DNA of 64,000 nt from an uncultured bacterium (GTDB taxonomy: Bacteria; Krumholzibacteriota; Krumholzibacteriia; JACNKJ01), in contig CAVOFT010000001.1 in the NCBI GenBank assembly GCA_963695095.1, forward strand, positions 3,488,001 through 3,552,000, given 5' to 3'. Below are positions 18,731 to 55,340 of this stretch, one piece after another. A program made the translations under genes and the position numbers. The notes under the pieces are model-generated. The model had not been told where the DNA came from. It saw only the letters and a list, made by a program, of their open reading frames with translations, and did not search any database. Position 1 is the stretch's first letter. Every line of letters starts with the position of its first letter.

Positions 18731-19252
18731 ATGACGCGCTGGCCCCTGGTATTGCTTGGTCTTCTGCTCGCCGCCGCCCCCGGACCCGCCCAGGACATGA
18801 GCGGCAGCGAGGTCGCGCTGGTCTCGCCATCCCTGGTGAATGCAGGAGATGCGGGCGTCCTGTTCACCTTCTATGTCTACAATGGCAGCCCGGACGCGGA
18901 ATGGACCCGGACCCTGACCTTCAGCTTCCCGGCCTGCTTCACGGTGACGGGCGGCTCCTACGATGACGGCGGGCTCGGCTGGGTCTTCTTCTTCGCCGCC
19001 GCGGGCGCGGTCGGCAGCTTCACCGACGGCGACGGCGGCTACGGCGAGATCTACGACGGGGACGGCGGCTACTTCTTCCTCACCGTCGATGTCGGCGCCG
19101 ACTGCCCGGCCGGTCCCGCCACCGTCCACTGGCTCCAGGAGGGGGACGCCTGGGGCGCCGACCCCCACTCGATCGCAGGCGACCTGGGCTTCGCGATCGC
19201 CGGCACGGCCACCGCGCCCACTTCCTGGTCCCGCCTGAAGGCCCTCTACTAG
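18731..19252 (+). CDS. Secreted protein with C-terminal KxLY motif; paralog of 20561..21088
   Basis: Signal peptide MTRWPLVLLGLLLAAAPGPA; ends ATAPTSWSRLKALY. Confidence 0.85.
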   Translation: MTRWPLVLLGLLLAAAPGPAQDMSGSEVALVSPSLVNAGDAGVLFTFYVYNGSPDAEWTRTLTFSFPACFTVTGGSYDDGGLGWVFFFAAAGAVGSFTDGDGGYGEIYDGDGGYFFLTVDVGADCPAGPATVHWLQEGDAWGADPHSIAGDLGFAIAGTATAPTSWSRLKALY

Positions 19253-19334
19253 CCGGCCGGGGCGGTCCCGGGCAAGGCCCGCGCCTCCGGCTGGGGGACC
19301 CATTTCATGCCGACTTATCAGAAATCATCATCCA

Positions 19335-19364
19335 TTGATTTTGCGAACCCTCTCGCGCTATACT
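19335..19364 (+). promoter_or_regulatory. Putative sigma70 promoter
   Basis: TTGATT-18 nt-TATACT in an AT-richer intergenic patch. Confidence 0.5.
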
Positions 19365-19523
19365 CTGCGCGCCACACCGGAAGTCTCGAGGCCGCCTTTC
19401 GGCAGCCCGATTTCGTGCCCTGTCACGCTGCCGACCGGCCGAGCGGGGGTTAGGTGTGCGCAGACTGCGCCCAATCGCCTCCGCTCGCCTCGGGAGTTCC
19501 CAGGCAGCACCATAACCGGAGGC

Positions 19524-20246
19524 ATGAATATGAAAAGACTGCTCTTCGCTCTGGCCCTGACGGCCGTGCTGGCCCTGCCCGCCCTGGCCGAGAAGCCTGA
19601 GGTGTCCCCCATCAGCGACTACGAGCGGGTCGCCTGCGATCTCGTCTCGATCTGCTGGACCTGGGACGGCAGCTTCACCACCGAGGCCTGCGACGCCACG
19701 GGCGGTCTTCCCGTCTGGCAGTATGGCCCCTCCACCGGCATTCCGACCGTGGACTGCTACGGCAACCCGATCACCAACGTGCTCGGCACCATTCTCAACG
19801 GCAGCTATCCGAGCAACTCGGGGCATCGGGCGATCTTCGGCGGCAGCTTCCTCGTCAGCGAGTCCTGCTATCTGCTCGAGCTGTGCCACTACTATGACAC
19901 CGAGAACAGCTACGACGGCGGCAACCTCGAGGTGAAGGTGGGCAGCACCTACACCGTGGTGCCTCCGGTCGGCGGCTATCCCGACGCCCAGCTCTGCGAG
20001 AGCACGAGCTTCTATGCCTACTGCGTCGACATGCAGCCCGGCTTCACGGACGGCCCCACGGCGGGCTTCGTGAAGGACTGCTTCGACCTCAGCGCCTTCA
20101 TGGGCCAGACGGTCCAGATCGCGGTGAAGTTCGGCAGCGACAGCTCCGTGACCTACCCCGGCTGGTACATCGCCGGCGTGATGGCTGGCGGCCTGACCAC
20201 GGCGGTCGAGGAGAGCACCTGGTCCACGATCAAGCAGCTCTACTAG
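19524..20246 (+). CDS. Secreted Cys-rich protein (MAM / immune-inhibitor-A-like beta-sandwich) with C-terminal KxLY motif
   Basis: Signal MKRLLFALALTAVLALPALA; HYYDTENSYDGG..FGSDSSVTYPGWYI; ends AVEESTWSTIKQLY. Confidence 0.85.
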   Translation: MNMKRLLFALALTAVLALPALAEKPEVSPISDYERVACDLVSICWTWDGSFTTEACDATGGLPVWQYGPSTGIPTVDCYGNPITNVLGTILNGSYPSNSGHRAIFGGSFLVSESCYLLELCHYYDTENSYDGGNLEVKVGSTYTVVPPVGGYPDAQLCESTSFYAYCVDMQPGFTDGPTAGFVKDCFDLSAFMGQTVQIAVKFGSDSSVTYPGWYIAGVMAGGLTTAVEESTWSTIKQLY

Positions 20247-20275
20247 CCCGACCCTTCGTCTAGCGAAGGAGCGCT

Positions 20276-20311
20276 GGGTCCGCGTCCCTTGGACGCGGAC
20301 CCTCTTTGTTT
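20276..20311 (+). terminator. Intrinsic terminator
   Basis: GGGTCCGCGTCC-ctt-GGACGCGGACCC followed by TCTTTGTTT. Confidence 0.8.
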
Positions 20312-20418
20312 CTGGCCTCTGCACCCAGCGTCCGCCAACAGACGGGAGATCAGCCCCTTGTTGGTAATGAATAAGTTACGCAATTCGCGTGTCGGCCATA
20401 AATCTGCCGCTCGACGCA

Positions 20419-20448
20419 TTGACCGCTGCCGGCCCCTTTCGCTATACT
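20419..20448 (+). promoter_or_regulatory. Putative sigma70 promoter
   Basis: TTGACC-18 nt-TATACT upstream of 20561. Confidence 0.6.
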
Positions 20449-20560
20449 TGAGCCACTATCGACGACTCTCCGGGTATGCCTAGTCCGGGAGCCGCTTCGT
20501 AGCTGTACACCTTGTCGATGCAACATCGAACGGCTGCCATCACCCCTGGAGGGTGTCCCC

Positions 20561-21088
20561 ATGAAGATCCTCAGGCTCCTGGCGGGTCTCCTGCTGGTGA
20601 GCTCGCCGGCCTTGGCCGACATGATCGGCGGCACCGCGGAGATCCTCGGCCCGGGCATGGTCAATCCTGGCACTGTAGTCACGTTCATGATCGAGGTTAC
20701 GAACGGCAGCAGCGACGGCGAGGCGACCTCGGCCGTGCACTTCCGCTTTCCGGAGACTTTCACCGTTCTCGAGGGCTGGGTCGACGATCGTGGCCAAGGC
20801 TGGAGCTTCGCCATGATGCCCTCCGGGTCCTACAACGAGCGCGGCATCTTCTACGACGCTGACGACGACCTCGCACGGGGCGAGATCCTGCCCGACCAGA
20901 GCGGCACCTTTTTCATCCGGGTGGCCGTCACGGGCAGCACCGACTGCGGCATCTACGACATCGGCTGGAAGCAGTACGGCGACAATCAGGGCAAGCACCC
21001 GCACTACGTCCTCAGCAGCATTCCCTACGACGTCTGCGGCATCGCCGTGGAGGAGATCAGCTTCTCCAGCGTGAAGAGCCTCTACTAG
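20561..21088 (+). CDS. Secreted protein with C-terminal KxLY motif
   Basis: Signal MKILRLLAGLLLVSSPALA; ends AVEEISFSSVKSLY; GGAGG RBS. Confidence 0.85.
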   Translation: MKILRLLAGLLLVSSPALADMIGGTAEILGPGMVNPGTVVTFMIEVTNGSSDGEATSAVHFRFPETFTVLEGWVDDRGQGWSFAMMPSGSYNERGIFYDADDDLARGEILPDQSGTFFIRVAVTGSTDCGIYDIGWKQYGDNQGKHPHYVLSSIPYDVCGIAVEEISFSSVKSLY

Positions 21089-21147
21089 GAGTTCGGCAGA
21101 ACTGCGAGCCCCCGGCCATGGCGGCCGGGGGCTTGCCATAGCGGGAC

Positions 21148-22407: not shown

Positions 22408-22475
22408 TCTCTGCCACCTCTCGCGCCGGGCTCGGCGCACTGACCAGTCTAGGCCGCGCGAAAGGGGCGGGCAAC

Positions 22476-23717: not shown

Positions 23718-23794
23718 GCGCACTGCGGATTCCGGTATCCTTGGGCGCTGCGCACAGGTGCTGAACCTGTGCCGTCCGGGAGGAGTCGAGGCCG

Positions 23795-26242
23795 GTGCAC
23801 CGAGCGATGCGTGCCGCGTTCCGCCTGCGCTCTCTGGTCTGGCTCCTGTCGGGGTCGGCCCTCTTGCCCTTCGCCGGCCGCACGTCCGCGAGCCCCTTTC
23901 TCGTCGAGCGGCAGCTCTCCGACCGCCTCCGCCCCCTGCCCTACCGCGCCGAACTCGACGCGGAGAATTTCCTGCCCCTCGGCTCTGCCACCGGCGGCGC
24001 CTGGAATCGCGCCTACCTGCTGATGGACGTCGACGGGGATGGCAGCGAGGATCTGGTGTTCTCGGGACCGCGTAACGTCGTGGCGACATCCCGCGCGACT
24101 GGCCCCGAGGTGATCCTGCTTGACCATTACCCGCCTCCCCAGTTCGACAGTGGCGATATTGGCTTCGAGCTGCTCGCCGCCGACTGCGACGGGGACGGCC
24201 AGGACGAGATCGTCATCGGCGGCCGCACTCGCGACTGCTCGCGCTATGGCTTCTGGATCTACGATCCGCGGACGCGCAGGGTGGAGTCGGAGTTCTACCT
24301 CGACGCGGTCAGCGACCGCCGCCCCGATGGCGCCTGGGACGGCGTCTACGCCCCCATCGGCATCTTCAGTGTGCCCACGGCGAGCGGCGAGCGGCGCGCC
24401 CTGCTCATCGCCTGCACGGTGGGCTTCGACATCGACGGCCGCGGCCTGCTCGCCGTGGATCCGAGCAGCGGCGAGGTGCTCTGCCGCTTCAGCTCGGGCG
24501 CCGGCATCGACTACCGGCTCGTTCACCTGCTGGACCTCGACGGCGACGGCCGCCTGGACATCCTGGCCGGCGCGCGCTGCCCGGACAACCTGGGCGGGCA
24601 CGCGATCAACGGCTTCGACGATCACAGCCTCCGCCTCATGGCCTTCGATGCCACCGGCAGCCTGCTCTGGACGCGCGAGCTCTACAGCTACATCGCCTAC
24701 CTGCAGCTCGAAGTCGGCGACCTCGACGGCGACGGCAGGCCGGAGATCGTCACCAGCGCCGCGCGGGACAGCTCGCTGGAGAGCCGGCTCACGGTGTGGT
24801 CCAGCACAGGCGAGCCGCTGGCCGACTACCGGGAAACCGGGGCCTCCTACCGCGATATCGCGATCGCGGAGAATCCCCGTGGCCTGATCGCCGTCGGCGG
24901 CGCGGGCACGGAGCTGCGGACCTTCCGCTACCGGCAGGGCAAGCTGGACCCGCAGGTCCTCGCGCGGGGTCCGGGATCGCTGAAGGTCTGCCGCTTCCTC
25001 GACGTCTTTCCCGAACGCCCGGCGCAGGAGCTGGTCGTCGTCAGCGTAGAGGGTCCGCTCTTCGTGCTCGATGCGAGTCTGCGCGCGCTGGCGACGGCCC
25101 CCGACAACCCGGGACCCGCCGGCCGCTACGTCGACATCTGGCAGCCGCGCCCGGACCTGCGACTGCTGCTGCGGCAGAATCATCTCGGCCACTCGGGCAG
25201 CTCCCTTCGCTTCTCCGCTACTCCATGGCCGCTGCAGCGCTGGCCCGAGCTTGCCGCCGCGGGCGCGCTGGCGCTCCTCGCCCTGCCGGCCTACCGCCGC
25301 CTGCGCCGACCGGCGCCGCCCAGCGAGGAGCTGCTGCGCATCCGCCGGCGGGAACTGCTGGGGCGGCTGGAGGTCGCGGACCACGGCTCGCTGGCGGCCT
25401 TCCGCCCCTTCCGGCGCCTGCACTGGTACCTGCAGGGACTGGGCACCGATGACCCCGGCAAGCGCGAGACGCTGCGGGAGCAGGCCCGGCTGCGTTGCCG
25501 GGAGTACGGGGAGGGCGCCGAACTCCTGCTGCAGGATTGCCTCGCGCAGGCCGCTGCGGCAGGGCTGGACGCGCGCGCCGTCGAACGCGCCGGCGAGGAT
25601 CTGGAGCGGCTCCGCGAATTGATCGATGCGCTCCTGCGCGCCGATCTCGACCCGGCGCTCTCCGCCCGCCTGATCCCCGAACTGCGCGCCGCCCAGGACA
25701 GCGCGGAGGCGAGCTTCCTGCGCCTGCGCCGCCACCTGGAGGCCGATCTCCGCGCCGATTTCGGCACCGTGCTGCAGCGGGTCCTCGCCGAGTATCGGGG
25801 AGAGATCGACAGTCGCGCGGTGGAGATCCAGGTCGCGGGGCCGGCGGGCCTGCCGGCCTGCCGGATGGATCCGGACGATCTCGCCTTCGTCCTCGACAAC
25901 CTGGTGGCCAACGCGCTGCGCGCCCTGACCAGCAGCGGGGAACGCCGCCTCCGCATCGAGACCAGCGTGGAGCATGGCCTGCTCCACTGCCTGTTCAGCG
26001 ATACGGGCGCCGGCATTCCGCCCGAGGACTGGGATGCGGCCCTCGACACGAGCTTCACCACCAAGGAGGGCGGCAAGGGCGGTCTCGGCCTGCCGAAGAG
26101 CCGCGAGTTGCTGGCCCGCAGCCGCGGCGCCCTGAGGATTCGCGAAAGCCGGGCGGGGGTCGGCACCACCCTGGAGCTGCAGCTTCCGCTCGCGCTGGCC
26201 GGCGCCGACGAGCAGACCACGGCCGAGGCTCCTCTCGGCTAG
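23795..26242 (+). CDS. Sensor kinase with extracellular FG-GAP/VCBS repeats and C-terminal HATPase
   Basis: Repeated DxDGDGxxE/D motifs, one TM segment, NLVANA, DTGAGI and FTTK..GGLGL. Confidence 0.8.
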   Translation: MHRAMRAAFRLRSLVWLLSGSALLPFAGRTSASPFLVERQLSDRLRPLPYRAELDAENFLPLGSATGGAWNRAYLLMDVDGDGSEDLVFSGPRNVVATSRATGPEVILLDHYPPPQFDSGDIGFELLAADCDGDGQDEIVIGGRTRDCSRYGFWIYDPRTRRVESEFYLDAVSDRRPDGAWDGVYAPIGIFSVPTASGERRALLIACTVGFDIDGRGLLAVDPSSGEVLCRFSSGAGIDYRLVHLLDLDGDGRLDILAGARCPDNLGGHAINGFDDHSLRLMAFDATGSLLWTRELYSYIAYLQLEVGDLDGDGRPEIVTSAARDSSLESRLTVWSSTGEPLADYRETGASYRDIAIAENPRGLIAVGGAGTELRTFRYRQGKLDPQVLARGPGSLKVCRFLDVFPERPAQELVVVSVEGPLFVLDASLRALATAPDNPGPAGRYVDIWQPRPDLRLLLRQNHLGHSGSSLRFSATPWPLQRWPELAAAGALALLALPAYRRLRRPAPPSEELLRIRRRELLGRLEVADHGSLAAFRPFRRLHWYLQGLGTDDPGKRETLREQARLRCREYGEGAELLLQDCLAQAAAAGLDARAVERAGEDLERLRELIDALLRADLDPALSARLIPELRAAQDSAEASFLRLRRHLEADLRADFGTVLQRVLAEYRGEIDSRAVEIQVAGPAGLPACRMDPDDLAFVLDNLVANALRALTSSGERRLRIETSVEHGLLHCLFSDTGAGIPPEDWDAALDTSFTTKEGGKGGLGLPKSRELLARSRGALRIRESRAGVGTTLELQLPLALAGADEQTTAEAPLG

Positions 26243-26258
26243 AATCCCGGCCACGGGT

Positions 26259-26350
26259 CGTGGTGGCGCCGGCCCTGCAAGGGCGAGCCTTCGCCTTCGT
26301 GGGCAAGGCGGTGGAGGGCATGGCGCTCCCGGCCGGCGGCGTCAGCGGGC
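26259..26350 (+). repeat. Diverged ~92-bp copy of MFS gene segment 23519-23610
   Basis: GTGGTGGCGCCGGCCCTGCA(G/A)GGGCG(G/A)GCCTTCGCCTTCGTGGGCA.. is collinear in both places. Confidence 0.9.
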
Positions 26351-26437
26351 CGCCACGAGTCGGAAACCCCTTCCCACTGCCGGGAAGGCGTGTAGAGTCC
26401 CCTTCGAGACTTGCCTTCTCGTGCCGGGTGGTGGTCG

Positions 26438-28903
26438 ATGGCGATGCCTGCAAGTCCGGAATCCCAGCGCGCCGCCCGCCGGCGCCGGGCCCTGCTTCTC
26501 TTCCTCAGCGCTCTTCTCCTGGTCCAGCTTGGGATCGGCATCGCAGCCATCGTCAGCCTCAGCCATCTGCCTTGGGCAGGCGACAGCCGGGTGAGCAGTC
26601 GCAGCTTCCTGCGCGACCTGCCGGCACTGCGGCAGGCGGGCGGCTTTCCAGGCGACGCCACGCCTGCCGGCGCCGCCGCCGAGGGAGCCGAGAGGGCAGC
26701 TTCCCCGGCGCGCATCTGGCTGCTCTACGGGCCCCTGCTCGCGCCGTCCCTGCTCCTGCTTCTCGTGGGCGCCCTGGTGGGGCTGCTCAAGCCCCTCGAT
26801 GCGCGGGCCTGGGCCGTGGCACTTGCCTTCCTCTCGCTTGCCCAGGGCGTCTCGCTCTTTCTCGAGCAGACGCCCCTGCTGGGTATTCTTCCCCTCCCCC
26901 TGCTCGCCGTTCTGCTGGCGCTCGCCCGGCTCGCCCTCTATCCCTTGGCCCATTTCAGTCTGGTCATGCTGTCGAGCTTCCCCAGCGAGTCCTGGCTTGG
27001 CCGCGCTCTGCGGCCCTGGCGCTGGCTAGTGACCCTGCCCTTCGCCCTGCTTGCCCTGGACGGACTGCTCGACAGCCTCGTGATCGGCGGCGCCGGCACC
27101 CGTCCGCTTGGGACCTTCGGCGCACTGCTGGAGCGCTTTGCGCACTGGGAGCTGCTGATCGCGCTGCTGGTCGCGCTCTGCCTCGCCCTTCTCGCCGCCC
27201 AACGCCGGAGCGCATCGGCGAGTGAAGAACGGCGGCGCGGGATCATCGAGGCGGGCATCCTGGCAGCCTGCGCCGGGGCTCTCTGGGCCGTTCTGGGCTG
27301 GAAGACGGGATGGCACCAGGGGCTGGCGGCCGCGCCGGGGGGGCCGGCGCCGCTCTGGGTGCTGAGCTGGTTGGCGCCTGTCTTCCTGTTCTCCTTTCTC
27401 CCCGCTTCCTTCACCTATGCCGTGCTCGCGCGCCGTGTCTTCGGCATTCGGCTCATCATCCGGCGCGGTCTCCAGCATCTGCTGCTCTCCCGCAGTGTCC
27501 TCGTGGTGGAGGGGATACTGATCTTCCTCATCCTCGAGAGCCTCCTCCGTCTGGAAGCGGGGCGCGCCGAGGGCGCGAGCGGCGCGGCGATCATCACCCT
27601 GGCCGCGATCGTTGGCATCGGCCGCATCAACCGCCCGCTCTTCAGGCGGCTCGACCGCCGCTTCTTCCGGGAACGCTACGACGCGCGGCGTCTCCTGCTC
27701 GGTCTTGGGCAGCGCTTCGGGATTCTGTCCCAGAAGAGCCTGATCCTCGCGGAGGCCGTGCAGGTGATCGGACAGGCCTTGCAGCTGGAGGGCGCTGCCT
27801 GCCTGAGTCGCGACCTTCGCGCCGGGCAGCCCCGCTGGCATGTCCTCGTCCGCTTCCCGGCGGAAACCGACGGTGTGAGCGCCCTCGACGGCGATGAGCC
27901 GCCCGTGTCGGCGCTGGAGGCCCTCAGCTGCGAGCGGCCGCTCCTCGATCTGCCGGCTACGGGTGCGCGTGAAGGCGCTGCTGCAGGGCACCCGCGCGCC
28001 GAGCTGCTCGTCGCGATCCCCGGCGCAGAGGGTGTCGTCGGTTGCCTGGCCCTGGCCGCCAAGCGCTCCGGCGAGCCCTTCGGTCGCGAGGACCGGACTC
28101 TCCTGACCACCGTGGCGGGTCAGCTGGGCCTCACGCTGGAGAACCTGGCGCTGCTCGAAACAGCCCGCCGCGAGGCGCGGCAGGTCCGCGAGCTCGAGAT
28201 TGCCCAGCAGGTGCAGCGACAGCTGTTTCCCGCCCGGCTGCCGGAGCTTTCCGGCTGGCGGCTGGCCGCCCTCTGCAAACCCGCGCAGGAAGTGGGAGGC
28301 GACTACTACGATGTCTTCCTCACGGAAGGTCGCCAGCTGGCGCTCGCGCTTGGCGATGTCTCGGGAAAGGGCCTTGGCCCTGCACTCGTGATGTCGAACA
28401 TCCAGGCGCTGATTCGTGACCGGATGCGGCGCGCCGACATCGAACTGCCCGCCCTCGCTCAGACCCTGAATCAGCACCTGCGCGAGTTCACGGGTCCCAG
28501 CACCTTCATCACGCTCTTCGTGGGACTCCTGGATCCGGATACGGGGCGCTTGCGCTACGTGAACTGTGGTCACAACCCGCCGCTGCTGCTGGCTCCCGGT
28601 GCTGCTGAGCCTTTGCGGCTCGAGGCCGGTGGCACTGTCCTCGGGCTCCTGCCTGCGCTCGCCTTCGCCGCCGCCGAGGCCAGGCTAGCGCCGGGCTCGA
28701 CGCTCCTGCTCTACAGCGACGGAGTGACGGAGGCTGCAGGCCCCGGAGAATCGCAATTCGGGGAAACGCGGCTCATGCAGGGTCTGGGGTCGGGGCTGCA
28801 GCCCGAGGCCATGCTCGCCGAGCTGATGACCGCCATTCAGGATTTCGCCGGTGGCCAACCGCAGTCGGACGACATCTCGGTCGTCTGCCTCAAGCGGCTC
28901 TAG
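26438..28903 (+). CDS. Membrane-bound PP2C/SpoIIE (RsbU-like) phosphatase with GAF domain
   Basis: Multi-TM N-terminus; VGGDYYD, GDVSGKG, NCGHNPP, YSDGVTE and DDIS. Confidence 0.92.
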   Translation: MAMPASPESQRAARRRRALLLFLSALLLVQLGIGIAAIVSLSHLPWAGDSRVSSRSFLRDLPALRQAGGFPGDATPAGAAAEGAERAASPARIWLLYGPLLAPSLLLLLVGALVGLLKPLDARAWAVALAFLSLAQGVSLFLEQTPLLGILPLPLLAVLLALARLALYPLAHFSLVMLSSFPSESWLGRALRPWRWLVTLPFALLALDGLLDSLVIGGAGTRPLGTFGALLERFAHWELLIALLVALCLALLAAQRRSASASEERRRGIIEAGILAACAGALWAVLGWKTGWHQGLAAAPGGPAPLWVLSWLAPVFLFSFLPASFTYAVLARRVFGIRLIIRRGLQHLLLSRSVLVVEGILIFLILESLLRLEAGRAEGASGAAIITLAAIVGIGRINRPLFRRLDRRFFRERYDARRLLLGLGQRFGILSQKSLILAEAVQVIGQALQLEGAACLSRDLRAGQPRWHVLVRFPAETDGVSALDGDEPPVSALEALSCERPLLDLPATGAREGAAAGHPRAELLVAIPGAEGVVGCLALAAKRSGEPFGREDRTLLTTVAGQLGLTLENLALLETARREARQVRELEIAQQVQRQLFPARLPELSGWRLAALCKPAQEVGGDYYDVFLTEGRQLALALGDVSGKGLGPALVMSNIQALIRDRMRRADIELPALAQTLNQHLREFTGPSTFITLFVGLLDPDTGRLRYVNCGHNPPLLLAPGAAEPLRLEAGGTVLGLLPALAFAAAEARLAPGSTLLLYSDGVTEAAGPGESQFGETRLMQGLGSGLQPEAMLAELMTAIQDFAGGQPQSDDISVVCLKRL

Positions 28904-31426: not shown

Positions 31427-32344
31427 ATGATGAAGAAGCTACTGCTGCTTGCCCTGATCCTGAGCCTGGCCGTGGGCGGCGCGCTCGCCAAGGAGCAGGA
31501 ACCGGAGAAGCCGCTCGTGCCCTTCCAGGGCGACATCCGCGCGACCGAGTCCGAGCCCAACAACAGCTGCGCCACGGCCTCGCTGGTCGTGCTCGGCGAA
31601 GCGATGCTGGCTTCGATCAATCCGATCGGGGACATCGACTACTTCCAGCTCAACGTCACGACGGCGGGCAGCTTCACGATCTCGACCGAGCCCGGCGTCG
31701 GCCAGACCGGCGGCGACACGCAGATGTACCTTTACGCCGCCGACTGCACGACCCAGCTCGCCTATGACGACGACGGCGGCACCGGCCTCTACTCGCTGTT
31801 CACCGTGACGCTTGGAATCGGTACCTACTACGCTCGCGTCAACGAGTACGGCAACAACGGCGTCATCACCGCCTACGTGCTGAACGTAGCCGCTCCGCAG
31901 CCGCCGCCGGCGAACGACACCTGCGCCGGCGCCATCAACCTGGACGGCATGCCCCAGAGCTTCACGGTGGACCTCTGCCCCGCGGCGAACAACTACAGCC
32001 CGGGCGTCTACCCCACCTCTTGCACCGGCTACGCCGCCACCGGGCCGGATGTCGTCTACTACGCGATCCTGGGCGAGGGCGGCCAGATCGACGCCTGCAT
32101 CAACGGCACGCCCGATCTCGCGCTCTACCTGATCACCGACTGCGGCGATCCCGTGGGCAGCTGCGTGGCCGGTGACGACACGGGCAACCCCGAGTGCATC
32201 AGCTACACGCACACGGGCACGGAGTCGACCTTCTACTACCTGATCGTGGACACCTACAGCGGCTGCGGCGTCGTGACCGTGACCATCGACCAGCTGGTGG
32301 CCACCGAGGAGACCAGCTTCAGCAGCATCAAGAGCCTCTACTAG
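31427..32344 (+). CDS. Secreted protein with PPC-like domains and C-terminal KxLY motif
   Basis: Signal MMKKLLLLALILSLAVGGALA; ESEPNN..DIDYF..DDDGG; PANDTC; ends ATEETSFSSIKSLY. Confidence 0.88.
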   Translation: MMKKLLLLALILSLAVGGALAKEQEPEKPLVPFQGDIRATESEPNNSCATASLVVLGEAMLASINPIGDIDYFQLNVTTAGSFTISTEPGVGQTGGDTQMYLYAADCTTQLAYDDDGGTGLYSLFTVTLGIGTYYARVNEYGNNGVITAYVLNVAAPQPPPANDTCAGAINLDGMPQSFTVDLCPAANNYSPGVYPTSCTGYAATGPDVVYYAILGEGGQIDACINGTPDLALYLITDCGDPVGSCVAGDDTGNPECISYTHTGTESTFYYLIVDTYSGCGVVTVTIDQLVATEETSFSSIKSLY

Positions 32345-32371
32345 CCGCACTTGATTTCCAGCCACGAGAGC

Positions 32372-32402
32372 GGCCCCTCCTCTTCGGAGGAGGGGCCTTT
32401 TC
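32372..32402 (+). terminator. Intrinsic terminator
   Basis: GGCCCCTCCTC-ttcg-GAGGAGGGGCC followed by TTTT. Confidence 0.85.
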
Positions 32403-32440
32403 ATGCTAGAATCCAGGCGTCCCCAGCGCGGGAGGTCACC

Positions 32441-34090
32441 ATGCGCCGCTTGATGCTCGCTCTCATCGCCTGCTTGCTTGCCCTGCCCGCCTTCGCCGCC
32501 GAGTTCACCCCCGGCGTGCTGCTGGCGATTGCCGAGGACCCGCAGGCCTTCATCGCCGATCCGGACGGCAGCCGCCCGGCCCCTGCCGATCCCGCGCTGG
32601 TCGCCCTGCTCGCGGCGCAGGGGCTGACCCAGGTCGACTACCTCGTCGCCAAAGTCCCCGCGACGCTCAGCACGCGCGAGCGGCGCTACCTGCGCCTCAG
32701 CGGCGCCGCGGACCTGGATGTTCTCGTCGCCCGCGAAGCGCTGGCCGCCAGCGGCGCCTTCCGCGCCGTCTCGCCGGACTGGGTCCTGCACTTCCTCGTC
32801 TTGCCCAACGATCCGATGCTGAGCCAGCAGTGGCACATCGCCAACCCGACCGCGGGCATTCACCTGCCCGAGGCCTGGGACAGCGAGCAGGGCGACCCCG
32901 CGAGCGTGATCGCCATCATCGACACGGGCATCGACTGGAGCCACCCGGACCTGGGGCCGAACATGTGGCAGAATCCGGACGAGACGCCCGGCAACGGCAT
33001 CGACGACGACGGCAACGGCTGGATCGATGACCGCTACGGCTGGGACTGCGGCGCGAACGACAGCGACCCGCGCCCCGAGGCCTACTTCGAGGGCGGCGTC
33101 GACGTGGGCTTTCACGGCAGCCACTGCGCGGGCATCGCCGCCGCCGCCACGGACAACGCCCTGGGCGTGGCCGGCGCCGGCTGGGATTGCCGCCTGATGG
33201 CGCTCAAGGTGGTGGGCGCGGGGCAGCCCTTCTCGGTGGCGGCCGTCACGATGGCCTTCAACTATGCCATCGCCGAAGGCGCCGACGTGATCTCGATGAG
33301 CTTCGGCGGCACGCTCACGGATTTCGGCTTCATGCAGGCGCTCGTCGACGACGCGAGCGCGGCCGGCATCGTCTGCGTGGCCGCCGCGGGCAACAACAAC
33401 ACCAGCGCGATGATGTACCCCGCCGCCCTGGACCGCGTGATCTCCGTGGCCGCCACGAACAGCGCCAACCAGCGCGCCTCCTTTTCGACCTATGGCGACT
33501 GGGTGGACCTCGCCGCGCCCGGCGAGCAGATCTGGTCGACGATCATGAGCAACTACCAGCTCGACTTCCTCACCGAGCTGCTCTTCATGCTGCTCTACGG
33601 CTACGACGGCGTGAACCCCTACATGTACAGCGACGGCACCTCCATGGCCTGCCCCCTCGTGGCCGGTGTGGTCGGCCTCGTCAAGAGCGCGGCGCCCTGG
33701 ATGGACCACGACGCCATGGTCCAGCACCTCATCGACACCGGCGATACCGTGGCCTACGACCAGCCCTGCGGCATCAAGGTGAACGCCGCCCAGGCGGTGG
33801 CCAGCCTCACCGCCGCCGGGACCGTGGCGACCGCCGGGCGCCTCGCCGCCTGGCCGAACCCCTTCAATCCCGCCGTGACCCTGCGCTTCACGCTCGCCGC
33901 GCCGGGCCACGCCCGCCTGGCGATCTACGACGCGGCCGGCCGGCGGGTGGCCCTGCTCATCGACGAGCTGCGCCCGGCGGGTGAGCAGCAGGTGACCTGG
34001 CGCGCGGAGGGCTTGCCCAGCGGCGTCTATCTGTCTCGCCTGGAGGGACCGGAGACGGCAAGTGCGGAGAAGCTCATCCTGCTCCGCTGA
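32441..34090 (+). CDS. Secreted S8 subtilisin-like peptidase with PNPFNP (FlgD/T9SS-CTD-like) tail
   Basis: DTG, HGSHCAG, AAGN and GTSMA catalytic motifs; WPNPFNP..SGVYL tail. Confidence 0.93.
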   Translation: MRRLMLALIACLLALPAFAAEFTPGVLLAIAEDPQAFIADPDGSRPAPADPALVALLAAQGLTQVDYLVAKVPATLSTRERRYLRLSGAADLDVLVAREALAASGAFRAVSPDWVLHFLVLPNDPMLSQQWHIANPTAGIHLPEAWDSEQGDPASVIAIIDTGIDWSHPDLGPNMWQNPDETPGNGIDDDGNGWIDDRYGWDCGANDSDPRPEAYFEGGVDVGFHGSHCAGIAAAATDNALGVAGAGWDCRLMALKVVGAGQPFSVAAVTMAFNYAIAEGADVISMSFGGTLTDFGFMQALVDDASAAGIVCVAAAGNNNTSAMMYPAALDRVISVAATNSANQRASFSTYGDWVDLAAPGEQIWSTIMSNYQLDFLTELLFMLLYGYDGVNPYMYSDGTSMACPLVAGVVGLVKSAAPWMDHDAMVQHLIDTGDTVAYDQPCGIKVNAAQAVASLTAAGTVATAGRLAAWPNPFNPAVTLRFTLAAPGHARLAIYDAAGRRVALLIDELRPAGEQQVTWRAEGLPSGVYLSRLEGPETASAEKLILLR

Positions 34091-43597: not shown

Positions 43598-46070
43598 TCA
43601 GCGAAGCAGGATCAGTCTCCCTGTCCGGAGCTCGGCACCGAGGGAAAGTTGCGACAGGTAGACACCCGATGGCGCGGAGTCACCACTCCGGTCGCGCCCA
43701 TCCCAGACGACCTGGTACCGTCCGGCCGGTAGGGTCCTGTCGAGGAGGTTGGCGATCAGCCGGCCTTCCACGTCGTAGATCTCCAGGCCTACCCGGCCCG
43801 CGCTGGGAAGCTCGAAGGAGAGCGTCGTCTGCGGATTGAATGGATTGGGAAAGTTGGTCAGGAGGCGCAGCGCGGCAGGCGCAGATGCGGGTACGCTGGA
43901 CGAGCCGCTATTGCTCGCACCCGGCGTGGGCGTGGTGAAGAACGCCCAGCTGTCCCCGCCGTCACGGCTGCGACCCTCACTGACATTGCTGGTCTGCGCG
44001 CCGAAGGCGTAGCCGTCGATCGCCTCGTTACCCGCGGCGAGACGCCCGAACAGGCCGATCTCCTCGCCGTCGCCGCTCAGCTTGAAGTTCGCGTGCAGGG
44101 GGCCGTCCGACTCGTCGCTGTCGCACCAGACCAGGAGGAAGCCGCCGGCCGCGAGCAGCGTGTCGGGGAAGGCCCACTGTGTCGTGAGCGCGAGGTCGTC
44201 GGTCAGGAACAGACCGGCCATCTGGACCGCGTCGGGGCCGGGATTGTAGATCTCGACCCAGTCCTCGTACTCGCCGGCCTCGTCCTGGATGCCCGCGTCG
44301 TTCAGGGCCATGAACTCGTTGATCCACAGCGTGATCGACTCGGGCTCCTGCGGATTCTGGTTCTCGGCGCCGGGCGTGGCCAGGGACAGCATGGACCAGT
44401 CGCCCGTCGCCGTCGGGCCAGCGGCCCCAGCTGACGTCCGTGCCGAGTGCGGGGAAGGTGACCTGATCGATGATCACGGCGCCGTCGGTGAGGAAGACAT
44501 CCTCCCCATCGGTGTCGAGCTTGAAGGGAGCGTGCAGAGCGCCCTCGGCGGGCTCCTCGTCCGCCCATACGATCACGTACTCACCGGGGGCCAGGGACAT
44601 CGACGGGAACACGAAGTCGGGCGTTCCCTCCAGGTGATCGGTGAGGCCCAGGCCGCTCAGATCGAGGCTCATGCTGCCGGTATTGGCAATCTCGATCCAG
44701 TCCTCGTAGTCGCCGGCCCCGTCGGCGATCGTAGCGCCGTTGTCTGCCATCACCTCGTTCAGGACCAGGCCCGTCGGCGCGGTCCAGGTGCCGAGCAGCC
44801 CCTGCAGGTAGTTGTACCGGGAGGTGACGAAGGTCTGCAGGGCGGGGATCAGGCGGGGCGGCCCACCGACCGCTGCGTAGACGTTCGCGGTCATGCAGGC
44901 CTCGAACTGAGCCGGTGTGAACATCGTGTTGGGGTCGTCATACACAAAGGGTCGGATCATGTCCCGGAGCTCTGCCATGCGCGCGACGAGCGTGGCTGGA
45001 ACCGCCGCCGTGGACATCAGCTTCCGCATGTGCCCAAGATAGACGTCGACGTAAGCGTCCACTTGCCAGAGGCGCTCGGCCAGGGGGCGATTCGCGCCGG
45101 GCTGGGGATTGGTCCAGTAGGGGCTCAGCTGGTGCATCTGGGTCGTCGAGAGGTTGTACATGTTGAAGATGCCCCAGGACTCATTCTGGTCCCACTTGGT
45201 GAAAACGAAGCGGTCGTCCAGATCGCGGTGGTAGAAGTAGAAGTTGGCGCAGCGGCCGACGTAGCTATCCAGGTTGACCGTGTAGTTGTCGACGGCGAGC
45301 ATCGCGAGCGCGGAACTGACGTCGAGCCGGTTGTGCAGACTATCGGACAGCGCTGAGATGGGCGTGTTGTTGAGCTTGTCGACGAAATCCACGAGATCGG
45401 ACCAGTCGTTGGCCGTCTCGTTGGTCTTCAGCTCGTAGTCGTCGTAGTAGGCGGACTCGGCGGAACCTAGATACTCGAGAGTGCCCGCGGGCTCACCCTT
45501 CCACAGATTGCCGTCCTCGCCGGTGCCCCAGCGGCTCTCGATGAACTCCTGGTCCTGCTGCTCTACCAATAGGTAGAGGCCCCAGTAGCTGCCGTTGATG
45601 GTCAGGGCGGTATAGTTCGTGCGGCAGGTGGCCATGCCCAGGGCCTCGCAGAGTTCGTAGGTCGCTTTCTCCCGGACATAGCTCGGGTCGAGGAAGCAGT
45701 TGTTCAGGCTGAGCTTGTCCAGCCCCTCGAACTCCTGGCCCGTCACGAACTCGTCGATGTCCAGCTTGAATGACTTCTTGAGCCCGTAATAGCCCCAGTA
45801 GCTGCTGTTGCCCTTGAAGCGCACGCCAATGGTCTCGAGATGCGTCGACCCCCAGTCGAGGCTGGCCTCGAGGTAGGGCGGGTCGTCGAAGTTCTCGAAG
45901 TTGGTGGTCAGCTGCTGCCACCAATCGGGCTGAGCAAAAGTCAACTGGATCTCGTGGACCGCGTCCCCTTCGAACAGGGGATTCGACGCCGGGCTCAAGG
46001 CCCCGAGGGCGGCAGTCCCCGGAAGGAGCAATGCAATCGTGACGAGGATCGAGAGCTTGACCTGATTCAT
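43598..46070 (-). CDS. CotH-family kinase with two lamin-tail domains and FlgD-Ig tail (frameshift near 44405)
   Basis: GVRFKGNSS, KKSFKLD, NFYFY..WDQN; two INE.MA..DW.EI domains; FPNPFNP..WDGRD tail; ORFs 44028..46070 and 43598..44392. Confidence 0.88.
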
Positions 46071-48683: not shown

Positions 48684-48822
48684 GCCTAGCGGTACGTGTG
48701 GGGCATGAAGGCCCATCGAATCTTCGAGGCACTATTTCGTGCGAAGGTATTTTCGACCTCAGGAGTTTGGCCCGGCAAGAGTCGACGCCTTTTCTTCCAT
48801 CGCCCGATTCAGGAGTTTTGTC

Positions 48823-50238
48823 ATGAAAGGCCCCAAGAACAGCTCCATGCCGACCGTATTGGCGTCAGTCGTCCTTTTCCTGGCCCTAGCCTTCATGGCC
48901 GGCTGCAGCAATGACGACATCACCCAACCCACGACGGTTAATGACACCGTGGACGATACCGATTTCGAAGCCACAGACTGGACCAGCGCCACCCATAGCA
49001 AGGATGCGGACCTGAATTTCGACGAGGTGTTCGAGGACAATACCGTCAAGAGAATCGACATCGTCATCACCGCTGCGCGCTGGCAGACCATGCTGGACAA
49101 CATGACGGACCTGTACGGGGCATTCGGTACCCATGGGGGTATGCCGCTCGATTTCGACCAGGATCCGGTTTTCGTACCGGCCGAGGTGTTCTACAACGGT
49201 GTCGAGTGGTATCGGGTTGGTTTGCGCTTCAAGGGAAACTCCAGCTTGGTTTCAGCCTGGCAGAGAGGAATCTTGAAGCTGGCCTTCAAGCTCGATTTCG
49301 ACGAATTCGAGGATACTTACCCACAGATCGACAATCAGCGGTTCTACGGCTTCAAGAAGCTGAGCCTCAAGAACAACTACGACGACCAATCCATGCTGAG
49401 AGAAAAAGTCGCCGGTGATGTTTTCCGCAATGCCGGGTTGGCCGGATCTCATACGGCGTTCTACACCCTCTATGTCGATTTTGGGGAGGGACCCGTCTAT
49501 TTCGGCGTCTATACCCTGGTCGAAGAAGTCGACGACACCGTCCTGGAAACCCAGTTCGCGGATGACGGCGGCAACCTGTACAAGCCCGACGGTGACGGAG
49601 CCTCCTTCGAAGCTGGGACCTTCAGTCAAGACGTCTTTGTGAAGAAGACCAACGAGGTTGATTCCGACTGGTCGGACATCCAGGGCCTGTTCGACGCCTT
49701 GCACGACGACACCCGAACCCTGGACCCCGCGACCTGGCGCACCAACCTGGATGCTGTCCTTGATACCGAGGCCTTTCTCAAGTATCTGTCGGTCAACACC
49801 GTCATTCAGAACTGGGACACTTACGGGCGAATGACCCACAACTACTACCTCTACAACAATCCTGACACCGGCAAGCTGACCTGGATCAGCTGGGACAACA
49901 ACGAAGCCCTGGAAGAAGGAAAGCTGGGGGGATCCCTGGCCCTAGATTTCTCAGACCTGGAAAGCGGTCGGTGGCCCCTAATAGAGTACCTGTACGCGGA
50001 CGACGTCTATCGGTCCCGATACGACGCATTTGTTTCAGAGACCATCGATGGCGCCTTCAACACGAGTGCGATCCAGGCCACGTATGCGGCCTATGCATCG
50101 CTGATAGAACCGTATGCCACCACAGAGATCGCCGGGTATACCTTCCTCAACGGAGGCGGGGATTTTCATAGGGCCATTTCGGAGCTGAACCAGCACGCTC
50201 TCCAAAGAGCCTTGGCCGTAAGCAACTACCTGGACTAG
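48823..50238 (+). CDS. CotH-family kinase lipoprotein
   Basis: Lipobox FMAGC; GLRFKGNSS, NWDTYG..HNYYLY and WDNNEA. Confidence 0.9.
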   Translation: MKGPKNSSMPTVLASVVLFLALAFMAGCSNDDITQPTTVNDTVDDTDFEATDWTSATHSKDADLNFDEVFEDNTVKRIDIVITAARWQTMLDNMTDLYGAFGTHGGMPLDFDQDPVFVPAEVFYNGVEWYRVGLRFKGNSSLVSAWQRGILKLAFKLDFDEFEDTYPQIDNQRFYGFKKLSLKNNYDDQSMLREKVAGDVFRNAGLAGSHTAFYTLYVDFGEGPVYFGVYTLVEEVDDTVLETQFADDGGNLYKPDGDGASFEAGTFSQDVFVKKTNEVDSDWSDIQGLFDALHDDTRTLDPATWRTNLDAVLDTEAFLKYLSVNTVIQNWDTYGRMTHNYYLYNNPDTGKLTWISWDNNEALEEGKLGGSLALDFSDLESGRWPLIEYLYADDVYRSRYDAFVSETIDGAFNTSAIQATYAAYASLIEPYATTEIAGYTFLNGGGDFHRAISELNQHALQRALAVSNYLD

Positions 50239-50340: not shown

Positions 50341-50556
50341 ATGACCATAAGTAGCATAAATGGATGCATCGGTTGCGAGGAATGCGTGCAGTCTTGCCCA
50401 TGCGATGTCATTCAAATGGACAAGGCGACCGGCAAGGCGATGATTGCATATCCGGCCGATTGCCAGATCTGCCATCTGTGTCGGATGTACTGCCCGGTGG
50501 ACGCGATCACCATCTCGCCGGAGAAGTCCATCCCGGTCGCGGTTTCCTGGGGGTAG
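50341..50556 (+). CDS. 2x[4Fe-4S] ferredoxin (AprB-like)
   Basis: CIGCEECVQSCP and CQICHLCRMYCP. Confidence 0.92.
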   Translation: MTISSINGCIGCEECVQSCPCDVIQMDKATGKAMIAYPADCQICHLCRMYCPVDAITISPEKSIPVAVSWG

Positions 50557-50558
50557 TC

Positions 50559-52972: not shown

Positions 52973-53071
52973 CTGCCGCGTTCATGTGCGGCCAGCAAGG
53001 AAACGCGTGTACGCCCGCTTCACTTCTGTTACCTTTCAAGCCCTTTCCCGAACCGGCCGGAACTGGCCCAT

Positions 53072-53755
53072 GTGTCCACCGATCACTCGCCAAAGGAGCC
53101 TATTGTGGAAAGCCCTGGCGTCAGACGGACCACCAACCTGATTCTGTTCCTCCTCGTGTTCGGATGTATGGGCCTCTTCGCGGGAGGCTGTGGAACTTCA
53201 CGGCTCGTAGAGCTTTGGAGCGATTCCGCGTATACCGCAGGTCCTTTGAACAGGATTCTGGTTATCTCCTTCCGACCGGATCCGGTCCAACGCCGGATTT
53301 CGGAGGATGCTTTCGTCGCGGCGCTCCAGAAGCGGAACGCGGTCGCGGTACCGTCTCACCAGCTCTTCCCCGAGGCAATTCCCGACACGACCGCTTTGCG
53401 TCAGAAGCTCGAGGAGGAACGCTTCGATGGGGTCCTCGTGCTCGTCAAGGCCGAGCGCGAGATGATCGAATCCCACGTGCCTGGCTACACGACCCGCGAT
53501 GAGGTCACCACGTTCGATACTCGATGGAATAAGTACGTGACTCACCGCGAGACGGTTCAACATGAGGGGTATACGGAAACGGTCATGTCGATACGGATAC
53601 AGACCGACCTTCTGCTGGCGCAGGAAGGGGGACGACTGCTCTGGTCGGGGACGAGCGAAACGATCGACCCAACCTCCCGTCAGCAGGTGAGGGAAACCGT
53701 TGCGGAACTCGTTGCCAGAGAACTACAGAGACAGAAGTTGATCCCGGCGGAGTAG
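53072..53755 (+). CDS. Hypothetical lipoprotein
   Basis: Hydrophobic stretch ending FAGGC; RR..ED and LLWSG.SET motifs; start uncertain. Confidence 0.7.
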   Translation: MSTDHSPKEPIVESPGVRRTTNLILFLLVFGCMGLFAGGCGTSRLVELWSDSAYTAGPLNRILVISFRPDPVQRRISEDAFVAALQKRNAVAVPSHQLFPEAIPDTTALRQKLEEERFDGVLVLVKAEREMIESHVPGYTTRDEVTTFDTRWNKYVTHRETVQHEGYTETVMSIRIQTDLLLAQEGGRLLWSGTSETIDPTSRQQVRETVAELVARELQRQKLIPAE

Positions 53756-53841
53756 TGAACCTGCCTCCCTGTCCCGCAGATTCCGTCGGCCTTGGCCCAG
53801 ATCAGGCTAAGACCTTCTCGTCATGGTGAGATCGGGAGACG

Positions 53842-53935
53842 GAACCGCCCCGGGATTGCCGTCGACTCCACGTTCTCGAGCAGATGGAGTTATGGCACGG
53901 CCTAAGCAATAGCCCCGGGAGCTGCGAGAGCGGGC
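53842..53935 (+). mobile_element. IS3-family left-end remnant
   Basis: GAACCGCCCCGGGATTGCCG matches the element end at 4918 (minus strand); followed by a degenerate orfA start (..SPELRERAIR). Confidence 0.65.
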
Positions 53936-54103
53936 GATCCGCCCGATCCGATTTTTGCGGTTACTTGCTCCTTATCGCAACTCCTCTCCAGATAGGTGCT
54001 GCGATGACCATTTGAATCAGGGCAGTGCGCATCGATTCGTTTCGCTGGGCTCGTGTGTTCTCAGCTCACCCGCGCCAGGACGCGCCGCCAAGGGAGGATC
54101 TGC

Positions 54104-54547
54104 ATGCCGGAAGCACTGCGCGTTGTCGCCCGATTCAGCGATGGCAGCATCCTCAAGGGCAACACCTGGGATTTCAATCCCACTGGCCGGATGTTCCACC
54201 TCTTCCCGATCGGCAGCACCGAGGCCTGCGAGGTCCAGTGCGACCAGCTCAAGGCGCTCTTCTTCGTCAAGACCTTCGAGGGGGACCGGGAGCGGCCCAA
54301 GCTCAAGGGCTTCCTCGCGGCTCCGTCCGAGACCTCCAAGGGCAAGAAGGTGGCGGTCCTGTTTCGGGATGGTGAGCTCGAGTGCGGCTACTCGTTGACC
54401 TACAACCCGAACCGCAGCGGGTTCTTCCTCTTCCCGGCGGACAACGCCAGCAACAACATCCGCGTCTTCGTCATCGTGGCGGCCGCAGCGGAGATCAAGG
54501 CTGGTCCGGCGGCCGATGCCCTCGCGGAGCGGGTGCTCGCGAGCTAG
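54104..54547 (+). CDS. Conserved hypothetical protein (DUF6982-like, two repeated beta modules)
   Basis: VVARFSDG..LKG.T.DF and V.FRDGE..G..YNP..GFFLFPAD..SNN; GGAGG RBS. Confidence 0.7.
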   Translation: MPEALRVVARFSDGSILKGNTWDFNPTGRMFHLFPIGSTEACEVQCDQLKALFFVKTFEGDRERPKLKGFLAAPSETSKGKKVAVLFRDGELECGYSLTYNPNRSGFFLFPADNASNNIRVFVIVAAAAEIKAGPAADALAERVLAS

Positions 54548-54764
54548 GCGGGCGCGACCAGGGACCCTGCCGCTCCCTAGGCCATGAGGACTTGGCTGGC
54601 GAGCCGCGTTGCCTGCTGGCGATTGATCTGCTAATATTATCGTGTTCGCCGGACGCCGGATGGGGAGAGCGCCTTCCCCCGCATCCGGTGCCCTCCAGTA
54701 CTGCAGAGGATGTGATTCGGGAAATGGGCGGGTGTCGACTCCAAGCGGCACGAGGAGTGGCAAC

Positions 54765-55340
54765 ATGAAGCGACTCGCGATTGCCTTCCTGATTCTGCTC
54801 GCGGCTGGGGATGCCACCGCCCAGTGGTACCCGCTCATTGGAATCTACGGCAGCGAGGCCGGAGTCACCTGCGAACTGGACATGGACCCGTACGTCCAGG
54901 CCACCGCCTACCTCCTCGCGGTCCTGCCCGACGACATGCCCGGGATCACGGCTTGCGAGTTCCGCATCGACAACCTGCCGACGCCGGAAATGGCGCTCAT
55001 CTTCTACGACTGGAATACGCCGCTGGTCATCGGCAGCGCGGGCTACGGCATCGCCCTCGCCTTCTCCCCGCCCCTGATCGGCCGTGCGGTCCCCCTGGGC
55101 TCGATCTCCCTTTATCCGCTGCTCAACATCCCGGACGATTGGCGACTGACCATCGAGCCCAGCTACAGCAGCGGCCAGCTCCTCGTCGTCGACCTGAGCT
55201 ACGAAGAGATCCCCGCCAACGGCGACTTTCTCACCCTCAATTGCACGGGGGCCATTTTCTGGGGCTGCAATTGCCTGTTTCCCTGGTGGACCACGGCCGT
55301 GCAGGAGAACTCCTGGGGTCAGATCAAGGCCCTCTACTAG
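54765..55340 (+). CDS. Secreted protein with C-terminal KxLY motif
   Basis: Signal MKRLAIAFLILLAAGDATA; ends AVQENSWGQIKALY. Confidence 0.88.
   Translation: MKRLAIAFLILLAAGDATAQWYPLIGIYGSEAGVTCELDMDPYVQATAYLLAVLPDDMPGITACEFRIDNLPTPEMALIFYDWNTPLVIGSAGYGIALAFSPPLIGRAVPLGSISLYPLLNIPDDWRLTIEPSYSSGQLLVVDLSYEEIPANGDFLTLNCTGAIFWGCNCLFPWWTTAVQENSWGQIKALY

Follow-up and report, generated by a model that had tools for sequence, protein, structure and literature searches.

A Short C-terminal Tail on Secreted Proteins of Two Uncultured Bacterial Phyla: A Probable Sorting or Anchoring Tag

A peptide of about 15 residues was found at the extreme C-terminus of five secreted proteins encoded in a 64-kb stretch of DNA (hereafter the window; positions 3,488,001 to 3,552,000 of contig CAVOFT010000001.1, assembly GCA_963695095.1) from an uncultured bacterium of the phylum Krumholzibacteriota, whose genome comprises 3.64 Mb with 70% GC in two contigs. 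[quoted passage not shown] Its likely function, throughout the lineage, is that of a C-terminal tag by which proteins already exported by Sec are sorted or anchored, and it would be read by a specific protein and not by the bulk membrane.

Known C-terminal sorting signals, such as LPXTG, PEP-CTERM and the T9SS CTD, have each opened the way to a dedicated enzyme system, and surface proteomes are routinely predicted with them. The tag described here is found on tens of proteins per genome throughout two uncultured phyla yet is invisible to annotation pipelines, and a considerable part of the envelope or surface proteome of these phyla would therefore be mis-read as 'hypothetical secreted protein'. 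If a linear tag of about 15 residues does send proteins to the diderm envelope, it would also be a useful display tool.

Sequence and position of the tail

According to an earlier note on this DNA, the five window proteins share one C-terminal motif and carry N-terminal signal peptides. The translated open reading frames (ORFs), all on the plus strand, agree with this: the consensus found in 5/5 is T-A-[VT]-E-x-[ST]-S-[WF]-[SG]-x-[IV]-K-[SA]-L-Y-stop, and each N-terminus is signal-peptide-like. When the source genome was scanned in six frames with the core pattern [WF][GSA].[ILVM]K.[LIMVF][YF], 50 matches were obtained, 36 of them immediately before a stop codon, 46 within three residues of one and 48 within 11 residues. 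Only two were internal, both weak F...F variants and one of them within a SecA-like ORF, and the proteome scan that the earlier note had called for thus showed that the motif is not equally common inside proteins. The DNA form of the tail was present at 30 sites in the source genome and the reversed pattern at none. Based on the six-frame positions and the reversed-pattern control, the motif is real, strictly C-terminal and far beyond chance.

Among the 48 stop-proximal matches, 46 had a usable start codon, and these 46 tagged proteins form the set used for most counts. Aligned on the motif, their tails read T(-7) A/P(-6) V/T(-5) E(-4) E/D(-3) S/T(-2) S/T(-1) in the upstream part and [W30/F16] [S27/G19] x [I25/V17/L4] K46 [S23/A15] [L42/F4] [Y44/F2] in the core. 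A Cys was frequent 9-10 residues before the Trp and is part of the end of the body. The tail ended exactly at the Tyr in 35/46 tagged proteins and no more than three residues later in 44/46, which leaves no room for a transmembrane (TM) helix; one extra Arg followed the Tyr in 4/46. Two more matches of the genome scan within three residues of a stop lacked a callable start. The earlier description of the tail as lacking a TM helix and being far shorter than a T9SS CTD therefore holds, with a length of about 15 residues and an end 0-3 residues past the motif. Paralog and profile searches recovered at least seven further degenerate tails that had been missed by the regular expression, e.g., with Ile or Leu in place of Trp, and the true number of tails in the source genome is above 50.

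Existing models do not assign the motif to a pathway, as a comparison proposed in the earlier note made clear. No Pfam model fell on the tail in the 45 tagged proteins scanned, no NCBIfam sorting-signal model matched the five window proteins, and zero NCBIfam families were recovered with 34 isolated 30-residue tails at E-values up to 10. The tag was also not found in the portions of the literature covered, which dealt with C-terminal sorting signals, T9SS of Eisenbacteria, secretion in Krumholzibacteriota and WGxIK-type strings, supplements being outside the scope.

A preference for the stop codon TAG, which ends 34/46 tagged genes, was considered as a property of the tag and was dropped. Genes ending in Tyr or Phe generally prefer TAG as a class, and the excess is thus an effect of context. 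In the source genome, a last codon for Tyr was followed by 50 TAG vs 15 TGA and one for Phe by 60 TAG vs 17 TGA, and the genome as a whole slightly favors TGA (1192 vs 1004 TAG in a crude gene set).

Tagged proteins

Each window tail is made up of the last 42 coding bases of its gene. T41 (173 aa; 18731..19252) consists of a signal peptide, a body of no known family and the 14-residue tail ATAPTSWSRLKALY, the translation of 19208..19249. Its paralogs are T43 (175 aa; 20561..21088), with a signal peptide and the tail AVEEISFSSVKSLY (21044-21085), and T08; a further paralog in the genome bears a T9SS CTD instead. The paralogy of the proteins starting at 18731 and 20561, which had been claimed earlier, was confirmed and extended by one paralog outside the window. 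In T42 (240 aa; 19524..20246), a signal peptide is followed by an InhA-like MAM domain just under the Pfam cut-off and the tail AVEESTWSTIKQLY (20202-20243), and in T44 (305 aa; 31427..32344) by a PPC (pre-peptidase C-terminal)/DVUA0089-type domain and the tail ATEETSFSSIKSLY (32300-32341). T45 (191 aa; 54765..55340), which belongs to the most widely conserved tagged family, has a signal peptide, a cohesin-like beta-sandwich, a flexible linker and the tail AVQENSWGQIKALY (55296-55337).

Genome-wide, a crude signal-peptide rule was passed by 42/46 tagged proteins vs 1068/2283 other genes, the control being deliberately permissive; T28 and T29 have lipobox-like signal peptides. After removal of signal peptide and tail, the bodies of the 46 proteins fell into 28 BLAST clusters, the largest of which comprised 12 right-handed beta-helix proteins, five members of the T45 family and three proteins including T41 and T43. 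They are not all homologous, in line with the earlier view of the tail as a portable module. Pfam domains above cut-off on the tagged bodies were Beta_helix, Copper-bind, PD40 and PPC, and those below it were Laminin_G_3 and the InhA-like MAM domain; most bodies had no Pfam match at all. In T10 the Pfam domain stops before the tail. Cupredoxin bodies and T38, which has a CxxCH heme motif, are among the tagged proteins.

Distribution in two phyla

For the distribution of the tail, 208 genomes from the GTDB phylum of the source genome were searched. Tails stopping at the Tyr were present in 11/11 other members of the source genome's family (5-51 sites each), in the source genome and in a few genera of family f7, and are thus typical of the source genome's own family. 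Tails with a single extra codon behind the Tyr were present in 205/208 genomes of the phylum, commonly at 10-70 sites each, with 0-1 sites for the reversed controls. Among the matches listed, Arg was the usual extra residue, and Lys, Gln, Asn, His or Glu took its place in some.

Three genera (g14, g15 and g31) seemed poor in tags, and the possibility that they are tag-free relatives was rejected, because 3-15 tails were still found in them when Phe in first position and two extra residues were allowed. A recurrent 'tail' in these genera, FGLLKVLF, was a false positive, being the end of a membrane protein.

In a second phylum, reached via loci titled Candidatus Eisenbacteria, the tag was present in 31/31 genomes with 28-101 sites each. 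Related loci were titled Candidatus Krumholzibacteriota, Eisenbacteria, Latescibacteria and Chitinivibrionia; the genomes of the loci titled Krumholzibacteriota, Latescibacteria and Chitinivibrionia (L073, L084 and L078, respectively) belong to the source genome's own GTDB phylum. The nearest ESM-Atlas clusters were commonest in Krumholzibacteriota. The tag is near-universal in two phyla.

Comparison with known C-terminal signals

The LPXTG/sortase, PEP-CTERM/exosortase, GlyGly-CTERM/rhombosortase and MYXO-CTERM systems resemble the tail in that a short, conserved C-terminal motif occurs on many unrelated secreted proteins per genome. However, in these systems the motif is followed by a TM helix and a basic cluster, both of which are lacking here. 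The beta-signal of outer-membrane proteins is the end strand of a beta-barrel, in which hydrophobic residues alternate and the terminal residue is aromatic, whereas the passengers of the tail are small soluble folds. Their bodies are of the cohesin-like, cupredoxin, beta-helix and PPC types, and outside the source family the aromatic residue is not the last: the Tyr is succeeded by one more residue, which in the listed matches is mostly Arg.

Another comparison is with the type A CTD of the T9SS (TIGR04183/PF18962; FlgD_ig-like PF13860). Like the tail, it is C-terminal on Sec-exported, unrelated proteins of the same genomes, it swaps with the tail on homologous passengers, and the best candidate for a reader of the tail is a PorU paralog. 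On the other hand, the CTD folds into a domain of some 70-100 residues, whereas the tail, a linear peptide of about 15, is matched by no CTD model.

Relation to type IX secretion

T9SS machinery is present in the source genome, in which SprA and PorU scored above their cut-offs. The best PorV-like match adjoins PorU and reached 112 bits against a cut-off of 250; six further and weaker matches to the PorV model were obtained, one of them sharing an ORF with another. The presence of SprA, PorV and PorU shows only that a T9SS exists and says nothing on its use by the tail proteins.

Tail and CTD were not found together. A CTD HMM built from the source genome matched 177 ORFs, none of them tagged, and no Pfam CTD model was found on 45 tagged proteins and no NCBIfam one on the five scanned. 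In the same genome, 12 members of the beta-helix family carry the tail, with up to 10 paralogs that carry a CTD recovered per query; a paralog with a CTD also exists in the source genome for T22, for T41 and for the T45 family. Homologous passengers in this genome carry either the tail or a T9SS CTD and never both. The tail thus occupies the place of a sorting module, as expected of a sorting or anchoring signal. It also marks a different and smaller class of proteins, with a median of 232 aa vs 648 aa for 139 CTD-bearing genes in a crude gene set.

The genes of the two classes lie close to each other. A CTD gene was present within 6 kb of 31/46 tagged genes vs 36% of other genes, an excess of about twofold, and T9SS-CTD proteins were the sole recurrent family near tagged genes in the source genome. 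This proximity may simply result from the clustering of secretome genes. In the window, a subtilase (Peptidase_S8) with a T9SS C-terminal sorting domain (32351..34090, plus strand) starts 7 bases downstream of T44, and the two genes, one with tail and one with CTD, are probably in one operon.

These observations bear on the possibility that the ordinary T9SS, i.e., SprA, a PorV-like shuttle and PorU, reads the tail in place of the CTD, as a much shorter signal. The machinery genes, the proximity of CTD genes and the position of T44 just before the subtilase would all agree with it. Moreover, the CTDs seen in the source genome mostly end with a hydrophobic stretch and Arg or Lys, and in this they resemble the tails outside the source family. 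However, known T9SS signals are folded Ig-like domains far longer than the tail, the CTD HMM passes over every tagged ORF, and in the source family the tails lost their terminal Arg while the CTDs seen mostly kept theirs, which points to different readers. We regard a minimal signal for the ordinary T9SS as quite improbable.

Two further ORFs with a T9SS-type CTD lie in the window, both on the minus strand. One is an ORF at 15123..16919 with a FlgD_ig-type CTD that reached 23.5 bits against a Pfam cut-off of 27 and is also matched by the CTD HMM of the source genome; the other is a T9SS cargo gene at 43598..44392 with a lamin-tail domain and a FlgD_ig CTD. No sorting machinery was recognizable among the genes of the window.

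The cohesin-like family and its conserved cassette

An AlphaFold2 model of mature T45 was calculated from a 28-sequence alignment. The body, with a mean pLDDT of about 92-98 per 10-residue block up to residue 140, is predicted as a confident beta-sandwich. In a Foldseek search with this model, the top PDB matches were nearly all cohesin modules (best E 6.7e-6, TM 0.5-0.63), while the sequence profile of the family gave no match in the PDB. The most conserved tagged family is therefore predicted, from its modeled structure, to have a cohesin-like fold. The recurrent tagged protein of the tag-poor genus g15, of about 185 aa, aligns with T45, T19, T20 and T21 and thus with the same family.

A profile search of 1.84 billion representatives recovered 2337 relatives of the cohesin-like family. 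Among the best 150 of these, 112 of the 121 single-module proteins end in the tail, and a T9SS CTD, as judged by regular expression, forms the end of 19 of the 29 long proteins (at least 260 aa, most of them of 2-4 modules). The source genome encodes about 14 cohesin-like modules and two dockerin-like modules. Its scaffoldin-like genes at 3376-3387 kb of contig C1 are apparently broken up into four ORFs, and only one of these has a CTD. In this locus (L088, C1:3376001-3388000), the four ORFs are consecutive on the minus strand with 1-3 cohesin-like modules each; elsewhere, each relative is one protein of 1300-1750 aa that combines four modules with a CTD, and the ORFs may represent two scaffoldin genes split by frameshifts or recoded stops.

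Cohesin-like genes of this family stand in a conserved gene order, which begins with ileS, lspA, rluD, a STAS/kinase/PP2C module, ruvX and mltG (ileS and mltG confirmed by Pfam, the others judged by eye). These are followed by a secreted protein of about 205 aa whose C-terminus is duplicated and dockerin-like, by 1-5 genes for cohesin-like proteins with tail, and by a protein of about 1400 aa with a Peptidase_C25 domain (E 1.7e-43) and a FlgD_ig-type CTD (3.9e-9). Against NF033707, the PorU model with a cut-off of 420 bits, the last protein scored 86-165 bits. Judged by its sequence, it appears to be a PorU paralog, the true PorU lying elsewhere beside PorV. The His and Cys expected of the catalytic site aligned with those of the genome's own PorU in 10/10 PorU-like sequences and were invariant in an eight-row alignment (A6).

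The cassette was found in the source genome, in five g15 genomes, and in loci titled Krumholzibacteriota, Eisenbacteria and Latescibacteria. It was also present in 18 of 20 more sampled genomes, across families f4-f9, the exceptions being the f2 sample and one of two f9 samples. An ortholog of the PorU-like protein was detected with a single-protein query in 111 of 128 genomes that were at least 90% complete. The 17 genomes missed by this query all belong to family f7, and this could be regarded as a problem of sensitivity, because a profile recovered clear full-length orthologs in 5/5 of those retested. In the second phylum, the PorU-like protein was found at E 1e-40 or better in 30/31 genomes and at 1e-100 or better in 29.

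Two irregular gene structures were noticed around the cassette genes of the source genome. The dockerin-like gene of the cassette (C1:2531552-2532400, locus L087) has no start with a signal peptide and has stops just upstream. In other genomes the orthologs are intact, with a signal peptide and a length of about 205 aa; the irregularity may reflect a pseudogene, a frameshift or an error of assembly. A second copy of the PorU-like C25 gene, about 50% identical, is located at C1:1280420-1283949 and is apparently split into several ORFs; the ORF that was read is without a CTD.

The cohesin-like fold raises the possibility that the tail is a minimal dockerin, i.e., that it docks non-covalently onto cohesin-like modules. 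CTD-bearing scaffoldins would then display the tail proteins, or carry them along, and the proteins with a single cohesin-like module plus tail would be adaptors. In dockerin-cohesin cellulosomes, too, the C-terminal module occurs on many secreted proteins, including unrelated ones, and cohesin-fold modules exist in single and in multiple form, the multi-module proteins being anchored to the surface. For Cloacimonadota, a cohesin scaffoldin bearing a T9SS CTD was proposed earlier (PMC8542988). The proportions in the source genome would also fit, with its roughly 14 cohesin-like and merely two dockerin-like modules facing at least 50 tails, as would the partition of tail and CTD between the single-module and the long, mostly multi-module relatives. 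However, dockerins are defined by duplicated Ca-binding segments (two of about 22 residues, each a loop plus helix), and the tail, with about one-fifth of their length, contains no loop of the D-x-N-x-D-G type; repeats with such loops were found in two other proteins of the genome. The T45 monomer model leaves the protein's own tail undocked on the cohesin-like body, and the true dockerin-like protein encoded beside the cohesin-like genes is a more obvious ligand. Prediction of a complex between the C25 domain, a scaffoldin cohesin-like module and a 30-residue tail gave a score of 0.00, that is, 'no answer', which speaks neither for nor against binding. On balance, docking of this kind seems unlikely.

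Recognition of the tail

In the T45 model, the last 20 residues had a pLDDT of 40-57, with a short helix of 8-9 residues (two turns) drawn over WGQIKAL. The high pLDDT of the body and the low pLDDT of the tail suggest that the tail is a flexible appendage independent of the fold. The argument of the earlier note that the spacing of the motif fits an amphipathic helix proved weak. The helical hydrophobic moment of the tails was 0.32 vs 0.29 +/- 0.13 for shuffled tails and was reached by 40% of the shuffles; the moment for strand periodicity was 0.21, below the helical one.

An amphipathic helix lying on a membrane leaflet could in principle serve as an autonomous anchor that needs no enzyme or receptor, as do the C-terminal amphipathic membrane-anchor helices of proteins such as MinD and PBP5. 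The two-turn helix of the model, the Trp and Tyr flanking Ile and Leu with the Lys alongside, and the tolerance of 0-3 extra residues after the Tyr would be compatible with this. However, the helix is short and predicted with low confidence, and its hydrophobic moment does not exceed that of shuffled tails. Moreover, a generic lipid anchor would allow exchange of Lys and Arg and general drift, whereas the Lys, Leu, Tyr and T-A-V-E are conserved over two phyla and on dozens of unrelated proteins in each genome. The selection on the tail, as judged from these sequences, appears too specific for a generic lipid anchor, and this explanation is very improbable.

The near-invariant Lys deserves separate consideration. 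It was present at its position in 46/46 tails of the source genome. In five tail-rich genomes, Arg at this position (CGN for AAR) gave nine matches, with three for the reversed control, against about 336 tails with Lys, a count derived from slightly different patterns, one of which lacked the S/T prefix and required exactly one extra codon. In genomes with about 60-70% GC, this pattern of codons argues for selection on Lys itself and not on mere positive charge. A chemical role, such as the P1 residue of a protease site or an amine for cross-linking, would therefore fit better than contact with lipid.

The variable distance of 0-3 residues between the motif and the free carboxylate speaks against strict carboxylate-anchored recognition of the PDZ type. 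Periplasmic PDZ proteases of the Prc/CtpA/DegP type read hydrophobic or aromatic C-termini, and the tail, with its hydrophobic and aromatic end at the extreme C-terminus, could be imagined as a degron or maturation signal for such an enzyme and not as an address. Nevertheless, not only does this distance vary, but the last residue may also be Tyr, Arg, Lys, Asn, Gln or Glu, and it would be unusual for one degron to be shared by about 50 secreted proteins that look stable. We consider a role of this kind extremely improbable.

The preferred reading, a sorting or anchoring tag with a specific reader, would thus take the following form. The reader would recognize a peptide of about 15 residues, T-A-[VT]-E-x-[ST]-S-[WF]-[SG]-x-[IV]-K-[SA]-L-Y(-R/K), located no more than about three residues from the C-terminus, and would send the small passengers to a destination in the envelope or on the surface other than that of T9SS cargo. 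The preferred but tentative candidate for this reader is the second PorU-type C25 peptidase, or 'sortase', whose gene directly adjoins those of the most conserved tagged family. Cleavage by it would take place at or after the near-invariant Lys, and the passenger would then be released or transferred to a surface acceptor. Three considerations favor this protein. Sorting and processing enzymes are often encoded beside their flagship substrate; PorU-type proteins number two in these genomes, as do the classes of C-terminal signal; and C25 enzymes include Lys- and Arg-specific peptidases, so that the Lys would be explained.

Several points weigh against this reading. The reader is one that we infer, and the PorU-like C25 protein is its candidate only. 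In the genomes covered, tag and PorU-like gene alike are near-universal and leave no negative controls, so that co-occurrence could only have refuted the link between the two. The cassette may be explained without the tail, as a surface complex of cohesin, dockerin and protease, and no cassette was seen upstream of the gene for the PorU-like protein in 2/20 sampled genomes. If located on the surface, a PorU-like enzyme would also need the tail proteins to cross the outer membrane; two secretins and a T9SS are present in the source genome. Furthermore, proteins of the cupredoxin and T38 types are classically periplasmic, and Arg at the position of the Lys is rare yet present.

A wider proposal combines these elements. 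FCB-type phyla with a T9SS would run a second, PorU-like 'sortase' pathway, in which a linear tag of 15 residues, and not a folded CTD, is read and cut at its Lys, and by which 20-100 small proteins per genome are fixed to the cell surface. Its flagship substrates, the single-module cohesin-like adaptors, would form a cellulosome-like surface assembly with CTD-anchored multi-cohesin scaffoldins and dockerin-like partners. Taken as a whole, this proposal is speculative and rather doubtful. The data do offer a testable reader in the second PorU-type C25 protein, flagship substrates in the cohesin-like proteins and a suggestive Lys. New here are the Tyr-stop variant, the count of Lys vs Arg, the swaps of tail and CTD within one genome, the cohesin-like fold, the PorU-like cassette and the phylum-wide counts.

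Other features of the window

Further features were observed in the window. A fragment of an integrase core (rve) and an ISL3-family transposase are located at 3748-4290 and 6956-7963, near a nucleotidyltransferase gene, and the region of 4-12 kb has a GC content of 0.63-0.65 vs about 0.70. A CotH-kinase-family protein is encoded at 48739-50238 in the stretch of lowest GC (0.60), and its gene is followed by those for a ferric-reductase-like membrane protein and then an FAD-binding, fumarate-reductase-like protein. Two large adjoining sensors are encoded at 23795-28903, one with FG-GAP repeats and a histidine-kinase ATPase, the other with GAF and a PP2C phosphatase of the SpoIIE type. A PP2C of the SpoIIE type is also present in the conserved neighborhood of the cohesin-like cassette elsewhere in the genome.

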